Origin: a virus
Taxonomy: Duplodnaviria > Heunggongvirae > Uroviricota > Caudoviricetes
IMG/VR virus record: IMGVR_UViG_2718218135_000001
Span: 1-64,000 of that record
DNA: 64,000 nucleotides
Reading direction: 5' to 3' (one strand)
Part shown: piece after piece, positions 1 through 40,142 of the stretch
Numbering within the stretch: position 1 is the stretch's first letter
Layout of the letters: each line of letters starts with the position of its first letter
Notes under the pieces: generated by a model
What the model was told of the DNA's origin: nothing
Databases searched by the model: none
The model's input: only the letters and a program-made list of their open reading frames with translations
Program-made: the position numbers and the translations under genes

Positions 1-5
1 CAATT

Positions 6-3731
<3,726 letters not shown>

Positions 3732-3903
3732 TCTACACTCGCGGCATTGGAAGCAAAGATATGGTCGTCTGGCACCTGATGCACATTGATAAGGCTATCA
3801 ACCACACGCTGGAGAAGTTCTTTCCACCAGCCTGAACACAATGATTGTGCGCCTTATAGCGCCCATTAAGATAGATAAGTACTTACCAACAAGGAGAAAA
3901 CAC

Positions 3904-4179
3904 ATGAAGACTTTGGTTCGCATTTCATCTAGTACCGACTATGACGTTTACCCGTTGTTCATGATCAAGTGCGACGGGCTGAACGATGAAGAAATTCAAG
4001 CGGCAATTGAACGCAATCTAGTTGAATACACAGGAATGGATGCGGATTCTATTTATATCGATGATGACGGTGTTTGTTGGCACAAAGGTAGCTGCTGGTA
4101 CGTCGACGACACAATGCTGGTAAGCGATGAAGACGCGGCCCATCTTGAGCGCATTTTGGGTATCAGCACTTTTGAGTGA
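3904..4179 (+). CDS. hypothetical protein
   Basis: ORF 3841..4179; preferred start is the internal ATG at 3904 preceded by aaggag; a copy of the AAGTACTTACC palindrome lies just upstream. Confidence 0.4.
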   Translation: MKTLVRISSSTDYDVYPLFMIKCDGLNDEEIQAAIERNLVEYTGMDADSIYIDDDGVCWHKGSCWYVDDTMLVSDEDAAHLERILGISTFE

Positions 4180-4218
4180 TATTTACAGCAAAATATATAA
4201 GTTAGCATTTACCTATCA

Positions 4219-4398
4219 TGAAAATTTTATTAGATATCACGTTACTTATTATCTCGATAGCCTTTGTGCTCGACTGCATCTTCACAGGGGCAATCCGTAA
4301 AGCGCTGGCGCCTGTTAATGATGTGATGATCAATGCGCTGGCCGTAGTACTGGTCTTCGACTCAGCATTAGGCGTTTTCAAAGGAGTCGTGGCATGAA
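4219..4398 (+). CDS. small hydrophobic (membrane) protein, 59 aa
   Basis: Read by eye, below the ORF-track size cut-off: MKILLDITLLIISIAFVLDCIF...; its stop overlaps the next ATG (ATGA). Confidence 0.3.
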
Positions 4399-27703: not shown

Positions 27704-28408
27704 GTGAATATGAAAAATATCCTACTGGCATCATTGTTGGTGGCATCGCCGGCTGTATTTGCAGCCAGCTTTGACTGCCAAAAGGCTTCGGCAGAAATCG
27801 AACACAAAATCTGCGATAACGAACGCCTGTCAAAATTAGACGAACAACTTAGCTCTACCTATTCTAACGCACTCAAAGCAAACCCGGGGGACGCAGACGC
27901 CTTAAAGACGGTTCAGCGTCAATGGGTAAGTATGCGTGGAAAACTCACTGGTGATAAGGCTCTGGAGCTGGCTTATCTAATCCAAATTAATGGCCTCAAG
28001 AGTTTGGATGGTTCGGCCAGCACAGCGGTGGTCAATGAGACACCGAAGCCGGTGCAGAAACAGCCTGAAGTTCAGGAAAAGACAAGTAAGGCAGACACAA
28101 AGCCGGCTAAGAGCGGTAATGAGCTAACTCTGGAGTCATTCCGAGCTAAGTATATTGAGATTGATGGTGAGTACTACAGCACAACATCTCTTCCTAGAGG
28201 GAGTTCGTTCTTATTCACCTGCGCCAGTCGCATTGCCGATGACCAAGTTAATGTCTGGAAGAAGCACGCGGCAAAAGAGGGCAAGATCGACCTTTTCTTT
28301 GAGCTTGAGAGCCGAATACACACCGCGATGCTGAATGCCAATTTTCAGAAGCTGAATAGTGATTTAACTAAAACAGGCATTTGCGATCTGATTACCGCTG
28401 TTCCGTAA
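27704..28408 (+). CDS. secreted protein with DUF1311/LprI-like N-terminal domain
   Basis: Signal peptide, then FDCQKASAEIEHKICDNERLSKLDEQLSSTYSNAL, a pattern I associate with the lysozyme-inhibitor LprI family. Confidence 0.4.
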   Translation: MNMKNILLASLLVASPAVFAASFDCQKASAEIEHKICDNERLSKLDEQLSSTYSNALKANPGDADALKTVQRQWVSMRGKLTGDKALELAYLIQINGLKSLDGSASTAVVNETPKPVQKQPEVQEKTSKADTKPAKSGNELTLESFRAKYIEIDGEYYSTTSLPRGSSFLFTCASRIADDQVNVWKKHAAKEGKIDLFFELESRIHTAMLNANFQKLNSDLTKTGICDLITAVP

Positions 28409-28463
28409 GCCAGATAAGGCCACTAGTTGTGGCCTTAAACAATTTGTTTTATAGATGGTGAAA

Positions 28464-28667
28464 TTAATGGAACCCCAGGCGAACCAAATCCATTGGGCAG
28501 AATAGACCTTCCACACCTTCGATAGACACGCAGTCAGAGCGGCGTAATTGTTCTTCTGATTTGCCTTCTCCGCAGATTTCCTTGATGACTCCCGTTGCAC
28601 CATTCGTTGCCACCATCACTCGGCTGCCGGTAGTGATAGCGTTACGGTTGCGATCATAGGTCTTCAT
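28464..28667 (-). CDS. small hypothetical protein
   Basis: 67 aa, RBS aaaggagga; flanked on both sides by AAACAA-N-TTGTTT motifs (28437, 28752). Confidence 0.4.
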   Translation of the reverse strand: MKTYDRNRNAITTGSRVMVATNGATGVIKEICGEGKSEEQLRRSDCVSIEGVEGLFCPMDLVRLGFH

Positions 28668-28818
28668 CGTTTCCTCCTTTCACATGGGTCAAATCAGGTT
28701 TCAAAAATTGCCGTTTTCCATGTAGGTGCGATTTGCAAAATCTCAAGTGCCAAAACAAATTGTTTTCACCATCTTGTTATTCAATTAACCCGTAAAGTTG
28801 ACCAGTACCGTAATAAAT

Positions 28819-30168
28819 AATACTGTTTATATGTGGGTCTTCCCCGATCATGGTGGGAAGGCTCAGAACTCCATATTCAGCTTACCGTAGTGGAACATCA
28901 CTCCCAGTTTAAAGCGCTCCCGGTTTCGGTATCCCCTGGCTTTTATTCTCAGCAACCTTATCTTGCTGTTAAGTGCCTCCGCATTTCCGTTTGAGACACT
29001 GTGTCGCATCGCATTCAGGATCCCGTACAGCCTTTTTCCTATCGTTTTCGCAGCATTTTTCATCATGGGAACGTCACTGTTAGCCGCCAGCGCCAGCCAT
29101 CTCTGCCAGTCACTCCGCCTTTCCTCGCTCCATGGCCTGTTCCAGATATCCTTTGCCAGCTCTTTCAGCGCCCAGCACTGGCTCGTCAGCTTCATCTGTG
29201 CACGCAGCCACATCAGCTTTTCCTGCCGGGATTCAGTCATCCACTTATCACTGTACTGCCACAGGAAGCGGGTTCCTTTTGCCTGGCGTCGGCTTTCAAC
29301 AGGGAGGTGCGGATGTTCATTCTGACGGGTTTTATCAACTACCTCGCCCAGTTGCTTCGCCACATGGAAGCGGTCAAAGGCGATTTTCTCAACCGCGCTG
29401 GGTAAGTGGATGCGCGCTGCTCTTATATAGCCCGCGTTCATGTCCATTGAGAGCGTTTTGATAGCCAGCAACTGCCCATCAGTGAGTGTGCGAAGATAGC
29501 CGGCAAGACTCTCTGTGCCGCGATCATCCGTTAAGGCCAGCGCCCGACCATCGCGATCGGAGATCACCGTTATGTAACGATGTCCTTTTTTAAAGGCGAC
29601 CTCATCCACATTCATATGACGGGCGGATAATGGCTTTTTTATCCGGGCAAGACCTCGCTTAACTGCCCGGGTCATAATGCCGTCAACCGCATTCCAGCTG
29701 AGCTTAAGTTGCTTCCTGACAGCATCAACGGTGCTGATTTTCAGCCATGAGAGAACGAACAATTCGAACAGCAACGTATACCGGCTTCCGGGGCCAGCCC
29801 ACGGAACAGGCAACGTCTGACAGCCATGCTCCGGACACATAATTCGTGGAACATCGGCTTCAACAATAGTGGTGAACTGGCAGGTATCAAGATGGCGCCA
29901 TTTACGATGACGGTGATCGTGAACAGAACAGGATTTACCGCAGGCCGGACAGGCTAGCCGGGTGTTTTCAGCGATCTCAATAGTGACAGTAACAGAACCG
30001 GCATTTTCATCGAGAGAAAGGGACTTTACCTGCCACGGATCGGACAGGTTGAGAATATGAGCGTAGAGGGACTTTTCGTCCATGGCGGTGACCTCTGGCG
30101 ATTAAATACACCATTATCATGCCTTCAGCCACCACAACAAGGGAAGACCCTTATATGTACAGTATTGC
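28819..30168 (-). mobile_element. ISL3-family insertion sequence (apparently intact)
   Basis: Imperfect ~27 bp terminal inverted repeats (aatactgtttatatgtgggtcttcccc / gggaagacccttatatgtacagtattg) bracket one transposase gene; target-site duplication not evident by eye. Confidence 0.7.
28863..30083 (-). CDS. ISL3-family transposase
   Basis: 406 aa; N-terminal zinc-finger CPACG...H..HRHRKWRHLD and DDE-type core. Confidence 0.8.
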   Translation of the reverse strand: MDEKSLYAHILNLSDPWQVKSLSLDENAGSVTVTIEIAENTRLACPACGKSCSVHDHRHRKWRHLDTCQFTTIVEADVPRIMCPEHGCQTLPVPWAGPGSRYTLLFELFVLSWLKISTVDAVRKQLKLSWNAVDGIMTRAVKRGLARIKKPLSARHMNVDEVAFKKGHRYITVISDRDGRALALTDDRGTESLAGYLRTLTDGQLLAIKTLSMDMNAGYIRAARIHLPSAVEKIAFDRFHVAKQLGEVVDKTRQNEHPHLPVESRRQAKGTRFLWQYSDKWMTESRQEKLMWLRAQMKLTSQCWALKELAKDIWNRPWSEERRSDWQRWLALAANSDVPMMKNAAKTIGKRLYGILNAMRHSVSNGNAEALNSKIRLLRIKARGYRNRERFKLGVMFHYGKLNMEF

Positions 30169-30178
30169 GAGGCGAGCA

Positions 30179-30445
30179 ATGGGCAGCAAGAATTCTAAAT
30201 ATGTGATCGTCTATAGGGGCGAAGCACTCAAGCACCTAATACCCGGACAGTTCGTTTTCTTCCAACGTGAAAAAGAATACGGTGGGGGGTTCTGGCTTGG
30301 TAAAACGCATGAGGATGGGTTCGAATTTGTGCTGGAGCAACCCACTTCACTAAGTTACGGGCTTGCGTATCTGATCAGATTGTCGAGTGTCGAAGCCAGG
30401 TATATGGAGTTTGTTGATGACATAGACGACTTCAAACTCACCTAG
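30179..30445 (+). CDS. hypothetical protein (N-terminus abuts the ISL3 right end)
   Basis: ORF 30119..30445 opens inside the IS inverted repeat; first ATG outside the element is 30179. Confidence 0.35.
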   Translation: MGSKNSKYVIVYRGEALKHLIPGQFVFFQREKEYGGGFWLGKTHEDGFEFVLEQPTSLSYGLAYLIRLSSVEARYMEFVDDIDDFKLT

Positions 30446-30530
30446 TCATCCCTTAAACATTTTGTTTTCTAACTTTTGTTATTTGAGATAATAACACAAA
30501 TAAGAAAATAAATTGTTTAAGGAGTTGATC

Positions 30531-30767
30531 ATGTTCGGAACCGCAAAAGACATCATCGAAAAGCTGGAGAACTACCCAGAAGACGAGCCGCTGCTGATGG
30601 TGATGTGGCACAAGGAAGATGTAGGTGAAGTGCGACCAGACCTGACTGACGAACAGTGCGTTCAGGTTTTGCGAAAAATCAAAGAGTGCCATGACACCAG
30701 CGTCGGCGTGAATTGGGATGTCATTTCTGACACGGCCAACATTCTGTTTCCAAAGGAGAAGGCATGA
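30531..30767 (+). CDS. hypothetical protein
   Basis: ATG after RBS aaggag; two motif copies upstream (30455, 30506). Confidence 0.45.
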   Translation: MFGTAKDIIEKLENYPEDEPLLMVMWHKEDVGEVRPDLTDEQCVQVLRKIKECHDTSVGVNWDVISDTANILFPKEKA

Positions 30768-31084
30768 TGCTGAAAATCACCGAATCGTATAAGACGGCGG
30801 TGATCAGCACCGCCCACGTAACGGCAGCGGATTCAGAACGGCTACCCATTGCCTGCTTCGACCCACTTACTGATCGCGGGTTGAATTGGGTACACGGTAC
30901 ACAGTACGGCTGGATTGTTCGTGCTGGAATGCGAGGGAATGACTGGAAGGAAGAACTGCGTGAGTACGGCATTTCCCAAGAGGCGATCTCCAACATACAG
31001 ACCATACTGGATGACGGCTTTGACGTGGTTCACTTCGATTGCGACGCCGAGCTGGTGGATGGGCTACCTGCATGGGAATGGTGA
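30764..31084 (+). CDS. hypothetical protein
   Basis: 106 aa, ATGA overlap with the upstream gene. Confidence 0.45.
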   Translation: MMLKITESYKTAVISTAHVTAADSERLPIACFDPLTDRGLNWVHGTQYGWIVRAGMRGNDWKEELREYGISQEAISNIQTILDDGFDVVHFDCDAELVDGLPAWEW

Positions 31085-31160
31085 TCGCCCACTCGTTGAG
31101 TAATCATGTCATATAAGCGAAGAAAATTGGTAACATAGTACCGCTTTTTAATCTGATGGA

Positions 31161-31730
31161 ATGGATGTGATGGAAACCCAGAACCAACAAACAAAACCTC
31201 TGAATAATGCTTATGCGTGGCTTCTAGCTTTACTGCCTCTCTTCTTTGGAGCACCGCCAGATGAGTATTTGAATTATGCAATAGTGATAGGTGGAGTCGC
31301 TGGACTCGGCTTTCTGGTGGCTGACAGAATGGCATTGTCTGATGCAGGGTATGAACCACCGGCCATCCTGTGGGGAGTATTTCTCCTTCCGGTCTATCTC
31401 TGGAAACGTGCCACCGTTACAAAAGGCAGTCGACTTCCTTTTATCGTAATCGTCGCGTTGCTTGCTGGTAACATCTTCATCGGTATCCCACACCAGGAAG
31501 AGGTTGCTCTTGAAGAAGCGGCTTGTCCTCTCGTAACGACCATTCTGAAAGAGAATAACGGAACCACAGCGCCGAAATGTATGAAGGTGACAATTCAGGA
31601 CAAGGTGACGGACAAGTTCTATAAAGCGACGGCTACGCTGGATAACGGCAACGACATAAACGTTACTCTGGAACTGACCGGCGAAAGAAACTTTTATGTG
31701 CGCGTTCCGGATGCCTATCTGAACAACTAA
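31161..31730 (+). CDS. membrane protein (multiple predicted TM helices)
   Basis: Hydrophobic segments AWLLALLPLFFG, AIVIGGVAGLGFLV, ILWGVFLLPVYLW, FIVIVALLAGNIFIGI; preferred over the overlapping minus-strand ORF 31230..31883. Confidence 0.45.
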   Translation: MDVMETQNQQTKPLNNAYAWLLALLPLFFGAPPDEYLNYAIVIGGVAGLGFLVADRMALSDAGYEPPAILWGVFLLPVYLWKRATVTKGSRLPFIVIVALLAGNIFIGIPHQEEVALEEAACPLVTTILKENNGTTAPKCMKVTIQDKVTDKFYKATATLDNGNDINVTLELTGERNFYVRVPDAYLNN

Positions 31731-39602: not shown

Positions 39603-40142
39603 TTATTTGTCCAGCACTTTGTACTTGTTCGTAATCAAACGCTCACCCTTTCTGGTAACTGTAAAACCAAACGGCGCTTTGCTGTTTTTACGTAACACGC
39701 TTTCAGCGAGCGCTTCATCGGTAGGTTGTATAGTTGAATTGTCTATCCAGTCGATGAGGGTAAGAAAGTTTAAAAGTTTCATGCTCGTGACGCCCATCTT
39801 ACAGGCTATGTCACGGACGGTACGAATCTGCCTGCATTTTGTTTCATGTGCTGCGATAGGTGTCTTTGAATTGTTTGGTGTCAGTAACGTATCCAGTGTA
39901 TTAAAGAACCCCCTTGCGGATTCAGACTTAATAAGACCTGAGTCGCTCATATCACACGCGATACGGTACAGAATATTGCTGTTGTTCATGAAGGGATAGT
40001 TCTCAACGAATCTGACGAATGCTTGTGCATTTTTCTCTCCGCATTTGTAATCCAGCGGATTATCTACGCGCCAGAAAAATGCACTGTTGTTTTTTGCGTC
40101 AAAGATATCAACAAATGGTAGTTCAGCTAAATAGTTCATCAT
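39603..40142 (-). CDS. hypothetical protein (low-GC island)
   Basis: 179 aa, no motif recognised. Confidence 0.45.
   Translation of the reverse strand: MMNYLAELPFVDIFDAKNNSAFFWRVDNPLDYKCGEKNAQAFVRFVENYPFMNNSNILYRIACDMSDSGLIKSESARGFFNTLDTLLTPNNSKTPIAAHETKCRQIRTVRDIACKMGVTSMKLLNFLTLIDWIDNSTIQPTDEALAESVLRKNSKAPFGFTVTRKGERLITNKYKVLDK

Follow-up and report, generated by a model that had tools for sequence, protein, structure and literature searches.

The window analysed here, a 64,000-nucleotide stretch comprising positions 1 to 64,000 of IMG/VR virus record IMGVR_UViG_2718218135_000001 (Caudoviricetes), carries a copy of the insertion sequence (IS) ISKox3 at 28835..30150. Our analysis makes it very probable that this element occupies the exact centre of the LexA operator of an operon in an SSU5-like phage-plasmid, and that it came to lie there through a target preference for CTGT-N8-ACAG. 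We assign the window to the SSU5-like phage-plasmids because its structural genes are 92% identical to those of Salmonella phage SSU5. The identity of the element, its ends, the target duplication, the empty site, the native start codon of the downstream gene and the target rule were all established directly. The copy itself is ordinary; the interest lies in the target rule.

An intact ISKox3 element splits a LexA box

We compared window 28835..30150 with 72,556 plasmids, 1674 of whose records matched the element overall, and found four plasmid copies, annotated ISKox3 by RefSeq, that are 100% identical to it over the full length (1..1316). The element, which lies on the minus strand with its ends fixed by empty-site comparison, is a complete and intact 1316-bp copy of the already known ISKox3 of the ISL3 family and by itself an ordinary insertion. 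Its transposase gene (28863..30083, minus strand) is an intact open reading frame (ORF) of 406 amino acids, in which Pfam recognizes Zn_ribbon_ISL3 (PF14690, residues 44-86) and HTH_Tnp_ISL3 (PF13542, residues 92-141), both above curated cut-offs, followed by DDE_Tnp_ISL3 (PF01610, residues 159-393, E = 5.9e-56). The DDE domain, the zinc ribbon with helix-turn-helix, and the terminal inverted repeats with an 8-bp duplication are together those of an ISL3-family element. A preliminary description of this region, made from the sequence alone, had already recognized an intact, full-length ISL3-family element, as the ORF with its three ISL3 domains and the ISKox3 matches bear out.

Alignment of both ends places the terminal inverted repeats at 28835..28862, distal to the transposase start and abutting its stop codon, and at 30121..30150, proximal to the start, ends that are conserved in relatives with 72-91% identical transposases. 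The sequence GGGTCTTCCC is common to both ends (10/10), 17 of the first 22 positions match, and with a 2-nt gap the repeats run to about 28 nt at one end and 30 nt at the other. The preliminary description gave the span as 28819-30445; the element within it is real, but its start had been set 16 bp too far to the left, and 30151..30445 is flank and neighbouring gene. The early start arose because palindromic target DNA lengthened the apparent repeat 16 nt past the true ends: the 38-nt inverted repeat returned by the repeat-finding tool (28819-28856 / 30129-30166) is a composite of IS ends and target DNA, its outer 16 nt on each side consisting of the palindromic half-sites AATACTGT / ACAGTATT and the duplicated 8-mer. 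No clean 8-bp target duplication had been seen in that description. In fact a perfect one is present, the left copy of TTATATGT lying at 28827..28834 and the right copy at 30151..30158, an 8/8 repeat whose probability by chance at a fixed position is 1/65,536. It had been overlooked since the sequences flanking the duplication form a palindrome of their own (AATACTGT ... ACAGTATT).

To reconstruct the empty site we fused the flanks on either side of a single 8-mer and compared the result with plasmids. This search returned 199 plasmids, in 132 of which one continuous match spans at least 80% of the fused sequence; the empty-site plasmids are ~110-kb and non-mobilizable and come from E. coli, Salmonella, Enterobacter and Citrobacter. 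IS-free relatives hold a single TTATATGT between CTGT and ACAG, and in one of them, plasmid NZ_CP086388.1, the site reads ...TTGACCAGTACCGTAATAAATAGTACTGTTTATATGTACAGTATTGCGAGGCGAGCAATG..., one base off the reconstruction. We also considered whether CTGT and ACAG might be part of the IS and rejected this, as the empty sites hold both half-sites around a single 8-mer. Within ISKox3 itself we found no CTGT-N8-ACAG box, the sole near-match having a G/C-rich spacer.

The reconstructed target, TACTGT-TTATATGT-ACAGTA, agrees with the LexA consensus of E. coli in 18 of its 20 positions. That consensus, TACTGTATATATATACAGTA, is the textbook form of the E. coli LexA box, for which CTGT-N8-ACAG is defining. 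By sequence the site has the features of an SOS box, namely the CTGT-N8-ACAG palindrome, an A/T-rich spacer, proximity to a putative promoter and conservation among relatives, and the 8 bp duplicated on insertion are the spacer of the box. The left half (TACTGT, 28821..28826, plus strand), which may double as a -10 hexamer, and the right half (ACAGTA, 30159..30164, plus strand) now flank the element and its duplications. The preliminary description had placed the insertion in an 'accessory cassette array', a loose term for what is a run of small genes in PHROG families without known function on an SSU5-like phage-plasmid, and its picture of the site lacked the LexA box, which is recovered when the flanks are rejoined (TACTGTTTATATGTACAGTA). 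Besides the split box, the 64-kb window contains no other CTGT-N8-ACAG, with 0.93 expected by chance; the sole A/T-rich site with one mismatch lies at 39659-39674.

ISKox3 and its relatives share a target rule

We then scanned public collections for IS ends, which yielded 10 genome loci, 118 metagenome loci and 36 viral-contig loci. Several of the genome loci were flankless, and the counts were supplied by the metagenome and viral scans; the rule drawn from them describes natural, surviving insertions. CTGT occupies positions -12 to -9, immediately before the duplication, in 100 of 118 distinct 24-nt left flanks, where 1/256 (~0.5 flanks) is expected, and ACAG occupies +9 to +12, immediately after the duplication, in all 40 distinct right flanks. 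The resulting insertion consensus is TA-CTGT-ATATATAT-ACAG-TA. The flanks fall into 94 clusters, 77 of them with CTGT, and 60 different 8-mers are duplicated. Each of seven annotated copies that we fetched (six from E. coli chromosomes and one from an IncX3 blaNDM plasmid) has a perfect duplication between CTGT and ACAG.

The same GGGTCTTCCC ends and the same CTGT-N8-ACAG target recur in unnamed relatives with 72-91% identical transposases. The names ISCfr12 and ISEc53 are given by the Prokaryotic Genome Annotation Pipeline to relatives at ~84-86% nucleotide identity. Of 5426 complete E. coli genomes, 1711 have matches to elements of this clade, at 2369 chromosomal places. These comparisons lend good support to a rule by which the targets of ISKox3 and its relatives are CTGT-N8-ACAG palindromes with A/T-rich spacers, and the position of the copy in the window is no coincidence. 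A test for intragenic insertions, based on stop-free stretches over the reconstructed empty sites, found none longer than 166 codons, a weakly informative result because leaders are often open.

Around one third of the full-length metagenome and viral copies have different 8-mers on their two sides, with half a box still on each (loci L008, L033, L039, L045, L056, L061, L068, L070, L072, L094, L096, L105 and L141 among them). Such mismatches are likely to stem from recombination between copies or from assembly joins across a multi-copy repeat.

Genes beside the occupied boxes

Of 35 ORFs flanking occupied boxes, nine are UmuD/HumD-like, four DinI, two SbmC, one DinD and one DinB. Among 32 sites with a duplication, 27 have an ORF that is led by a ribosome-binding site and begins 26-57 nt from the IS end. 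Both orientations of the element relative to the neighbouring gene occur, and the bias between them (16 vs 9) is not significant. The neighbours of the seven fetched copies include tisB and dinD, both beside chromosomal copies in E. coli, an S24 peptidase gene and a gene of 79 amino acids that precedes umuD, and the copy on the IncX3 blaNDM plasmid sits upstream of an umuD operon. Judged from these neighbours, the occupied boxes appear to be real operators of the SOS regulon. An 'IS26-umuD-ISKox3' arrangement has been drawn repeatedly for IncX3 plasmids in the literature, and the target rule would explain why ISKox3 is always depicted beside umuD on the epidemic IncX3 blaNDM plasmids.

Several further observations concern individual neighbours. 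On the chromosome of E. coli ETEC1730 (L209) and, at ~30.2-30.4 kb, in at least five other genomes, ISKox3 lies in the box upstream of tisB, between ivbL and tisB. This insertion is found both in genomes with a 99.9% IS allele and in genomes with a 98.4% allele; tisB is an SOS-induced toxin gene, and the insertion could alter TisB-dependent persistence. The commonest neighbour of occupied boxes is a 79-amino-acid 'MPRxxDI' family (L205, 3851-4090; L210, 2548-2787; many metagenome loci), often encoded just upstream of umuD-like genes and annotated 'DNA polymerase V' in some records; in a pooled scan against Pfam and NCBIfam it had no match at E <= 1e-5. In Escherichia phage SaltyDalty (PP925825.1, 27571-27756), a 186-bp remnant of an IS end (query 1131-1316, 89.8% identity) lies beside a UmuD-like gene and has the look of an old, degraded insertion into a different SOS box.

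The same box has been hit repeatedly in SSU5-like plasmids

In four other SSU5-like plasmids, too, ISKox3 occupies this box, and its orientation is the same. We fetched three of these for comparison of duplications and identity: one has the duplication TTATACAT and another TTATATAT. The IS copies at this box are 98.4-99.85% identical, whereas their flanks are only 77-93% identical, and TTATACAT is the natural spacer in an empty Enterobacter plasmid. We regard the insertions as separate because their duplications differ (TTATATGT, TTATACAT and TTATATAT), because these match natural spacer variants and because the flanks diverge more than the IS. A single ancestral insertion in SSU5-like plasmids was considered and rejected, given duplications that differ by backbone and match natural spacer variants, and one ISKox3 allele that is different. 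By this comparison, the putatively SOS-controlled operon of the SSU5 family has been hit independently at least three times, and the repeated hits hint at selection on the response of the phage-plasmid to host DNA damage.

The downstream gene retains its native start

The gene that the element abuts encodes a protein of 88 amino acids (30179..30445, plus strand). In the IS-free relatives L001 (an E. coli plasmid), L206 and L207, and in phage SSU5 (L215), it is annotated as 267 bp and 88 amino acids with its ATG at the equivalent of window 30179, and upstream of that ATG their sequence continues directly into the left flank of the window. The product aligns end to end with phrog_2100 (residues 1-84 against 1-84 of 85); neither Pfam nor PHROGs gives it a function. 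A ribosome-binding site, GAGG, is read at 30169..30172 (plus strand), 6 nt before the ATG. The coding sequence and the ribosome-binding site of this first gene are untouched by the insertion. Beyond it, the presumed remainder of the operon (30531..31730, plus strand) encodes a DUF1380 protein (30531-30767), a DUF5983 protein (30764-31084) and a protein of 189 amino acids (31161-31730), assigned from ORFs, Pfam and PHROGs, in the same gene order as in SSU5 and related plasmids. On the other side of the element lies the divergent gene ydfZ (28464..28667, minus strand; Pfam YdfZ, E = 1.8e-30).

The preliminary description was right that the element abuts the start of a downstream gene, that an ORF at 30119..30445 is open from inside the IS end and that 30179 is the first ATG outside the element. 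From these it proposed that the IS may have replaced the N-terminus of the gene, or its promoter, a reading in which the IS supplies a start or promoter and the gene begins at 30119. The empty-site comparison that it had itself named as decisive refutes the N-terminal part: IS-free relatives begin at the equivalent of 30179 with an identical ribosome-binding site and leader, and phrog_2100 covers the 88-amino-acid form from end to end. Beyond the ORF being open from within the IS, nothing favours the longer form; no ribosome-binding site precedes 30119 and no outward promoter-like site was found at the junctions. We consider a start at 30119 almost certainly wrong: over 30119..30178 (plus strand), a segment that IS-free relatives lack and that is no part of the gene, the reading frame stays open into the IS end by chance. 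As for the promoter, nothing was replaced; the putative promoter has been severed from its gene and the operator destroyed, so that this part of the claim holds to a degree.

Two related plasmids bear on the later history of this operon. CP058032.1 (L004, locus 3236-4383) shares this ISKox3 insertion, its left flank and duplication being identical to those in the window, and ~280 bp further on an IS3-family element lies within the gene for the 88-amino-acid protein, so that the operon has been hit a second time. CP057419.1 (L208, a 52-kb plasmid; alignment columns 70-90) has an empty site with GCAG as the right half-site and leaves the gene unannotated; it may be a deletion derivative in which the operator or the gene is degenerating.

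Consequences for the operon

We infer a promoter for the operon that would overlap the box, with TTGACC (28798..28803, plus strand) as the -35 hexamer, 17 nt upstream of TACTGT. TTGACC, the spacing of 17-18 nt, the box and the ribosome-binding site are conserved in the diverged plasmids and SSU5 (L001, L206, L207 and SSU5), while the intervening sequence drifts. In IS-free relatives the ATG lies 20 nt past the box; in the window, 14 nt separate the end of the box from the ATG. The same module of TTGACC, SOS box, ribosome-binding site and ATG precedes a phrog_2100 homologue in the unrelated 51.7-kb Salmonella phage 29485 (KY709687.1, L216, locus 440-500), which suggests a portable gene under SOS control.

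The arrangement is best accounted for by transposition of a full-length ISKox3 into the exact centre of an SOS box that would control this conserved small-gene operon. The two strands were cut at staggered positions, on the inner side of CTGT and of ACAG, which left the 8-bp spacer TTATATGT in duplicate. The insertion point is 28 bp upstream of the ATG and separates the putative -10 hexamer from the ribosome-binding site, and the gene keeps a 28-nt leader that includes the latter. The half-sites are now 1324 bp apart, and the putative promoter is displaced from the gene by the same 1324 bp. Such separation would abolish binding of a LexA dimer, and the displaced promoter would now be aimed into the distal IS end, antisense to the transposase. 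With the operator split and the promoter displaced, the operon would be expected to lack SOS control, and most likely it is largely silenced.

A promoter scan found no outward-facing or hybrid promoter-like site at either junction, and we dropped an IS-borne promoter for the gene on these grounds. A different outcome would be constitutive read-through, in which the derepressed upstream promoter transcribes across the 1.3-kb IS and switches the operon on, at a low level. The left flank keeps both putative hexamers, -35 and -10, and a scan of 28400..30600 gave no terminator-like site on the plus strand; the orientation seen here, in which transposase and gene diverge, is the more frequent of the two (16 vs 9, not significant). 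A read-through transcript would nevertheless contain 1.3 kb of untranslated antisense sequence, which is prone to Rho termination, and its synthesis would meet converging transcription of the transposase gene. We regard silencing as the most likely outcome and read-through as the main, less likely alternative.

How the target is chosen

The mechanism we favour is that a symmetric transposase complex most likely reads the two 4-bp half-sites, CTGT and ACAG, directly, and that it would need an A/T-rich, easily deformed spacer between them. Some points weigh against our interpretation of the site and of the rule. CTGT is imperfect in about 15% of left flanks, mostly by one mismatch (as in CTGG, GTGT or ATGT), and selection for capsule loss in K. 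pneumoniae gave ISKox3 insertions in capsule genes with the duplications ATTTGTAA, ATACATAT and TTATAATT (PMC12057282). These are A/T-rich 8-bp duplications, and because such insertions were recovered the target rule is to be read as a strong preference, not an absolute one. The 35 flanking ORFs were hand-picked from a heuristic list. A consensus promoter scan did not call the TTGACC/TACTGT promoter, whose hexamers are our own assignment; the scan missed it because the -10 hexamer has only 3/6 matches. Lastly, the sequence data fit recognition by the transposase itself as well as recruitment by bound LexA.

In this last alternative, LexA bound at the operator would draw in the transposase, either by itself or through the distortion that it imposes on the DNA, or else LexA would keep the transposase out until SOS induction. 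It gains from the insertion logo, which mirrors the whole 20-bp LexA consensus including the outer TA and TA and the alternating A/T spacer, and from the likelihood that the occupied sites are functional SOS-regulon operators. However, the occupied half-sites are near-perfect (ACAG in 40/40, CTGT in 85%, CTGG in only 5/118), whereas roughly half of LexA-bound E. coli boxes have CCAG or other variants, which points to a stricter, direct readout. We also looked for a LexA-like DNA-binding domain in the transposase, and Pfam gave neither this nor any other extra domain at E <= 10. A symmetric target consensus flanking staggered cuts is common for DDE transposases. Direct readout is preferred over LexA recruitment because of the near-perfect half-sites, the lack of an extra domain in the transposase and this general tendency of DDE enzymes towards symmetric targets; guidance by LexA seems to us unlikely, though not negligibly so.

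More radically, the rule might reflect survivorship only, insertion being roughly random in A/T-rich DNA and copies in SOS boxes persisting as harmless or useful. Insertions outside SOS boxes can indeed be selected in the laboratory (PMC12057282), and the natural data consist of surviving insertions only. Yet the duplication is the exact 8-bp spacer at ~80-100% of ~94 loci and is never shifted, and selection cannot set such a register. Moreover, many other neutral, intergenic A/T-rich positions are unused, and the one CTGT-N8-ACAG in the 64-kb window is the site that was hit. Survivorship as the sole cause is highly improbable, and direct recognition of the half-sites by the transposase remains our preferred explanation.

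Significance and relation to known systems

We lean towards the broader view that ISKox3 and its relatives form an IS clade dedicated to LexA operators on chromosomes, plasmids and phages, whose insertions free genes from SOS control. If so, the genes freed would include umuDC-like polymerases, tisB, dinD, dinB, sbmC, dinI and phage switch genes. The target rule predicts that with each insertion part of the response to DNA damage is rewired, including error-prone polymerases and TisB, a persistence toxin. Should bound LexA either block or guide the transposase, DNA damage would influence which targets are available. The junctions could furthermore be a natural marker by which unrecognized genes under LexA control are found on mobile elements, with phrog_2100 and the 79-amino-acid 'MPRxxDI' family as examples, and they suggest an annotation rule whereby an ISKox3-type junction marks a LexA box and flags phage and plasmid genes under SOS control. 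The compactness of its DDE transposase and the symmetry of its 16-bp target also suit the element to mechanistic study.

ISKox3 is a RefSeq name for an ISL3-family element common on IncX3 blaNDM plasmids; the element in the window is identical to it, and what we add is the target rule. ISCfr12 and ISEc53, also of the ISL3 family, are distinct IS species, at ~84-86% nucleotide identity to the element. In the full-text literature that we searched, a scope outside which subscription journals and ISfinder notes lie, we found no statement that ISKox3 or any IS targets LexA boxes, and the SOS-box rule appears to be undescribed.

Precise choice of a short, mostly intergenic palindrome that is repeated through a genome is known from other elements: IS1397 and ISKpn1 insert in units of repetitive extragenic palindromic (REP) sequences and bacterial interspersed mosaic elements, and IS30 has a palindromic hot spot. 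ISPpu9 of the IS110 family is reported to insert in REP sequences (PMC12288879). ISKox3 resembles all of these in its choice of target and differs from them in that the palindrome is a transcription-factor operator, so that each insertion would remove a gene from a stress regulon. Its enzyme is an ISL3-type DDE transposase, whereas that of IS110 elements is reported to be an RNA-guided DEDD enzyme (PMC11187229). A link between SOS and mobile DNA through CTGT-N8-ACAG has precedents in integron integrases (PMC3108266) and ISCR transposases (PMC13393415), where a LexA box is reported to be carried by the element to control its own genes. ISKox3 shares this link with integrons and ISCR elements; in them the box lies within the element and regulates it, whereas for ISKox3 the box is the landing site and is destroyed.

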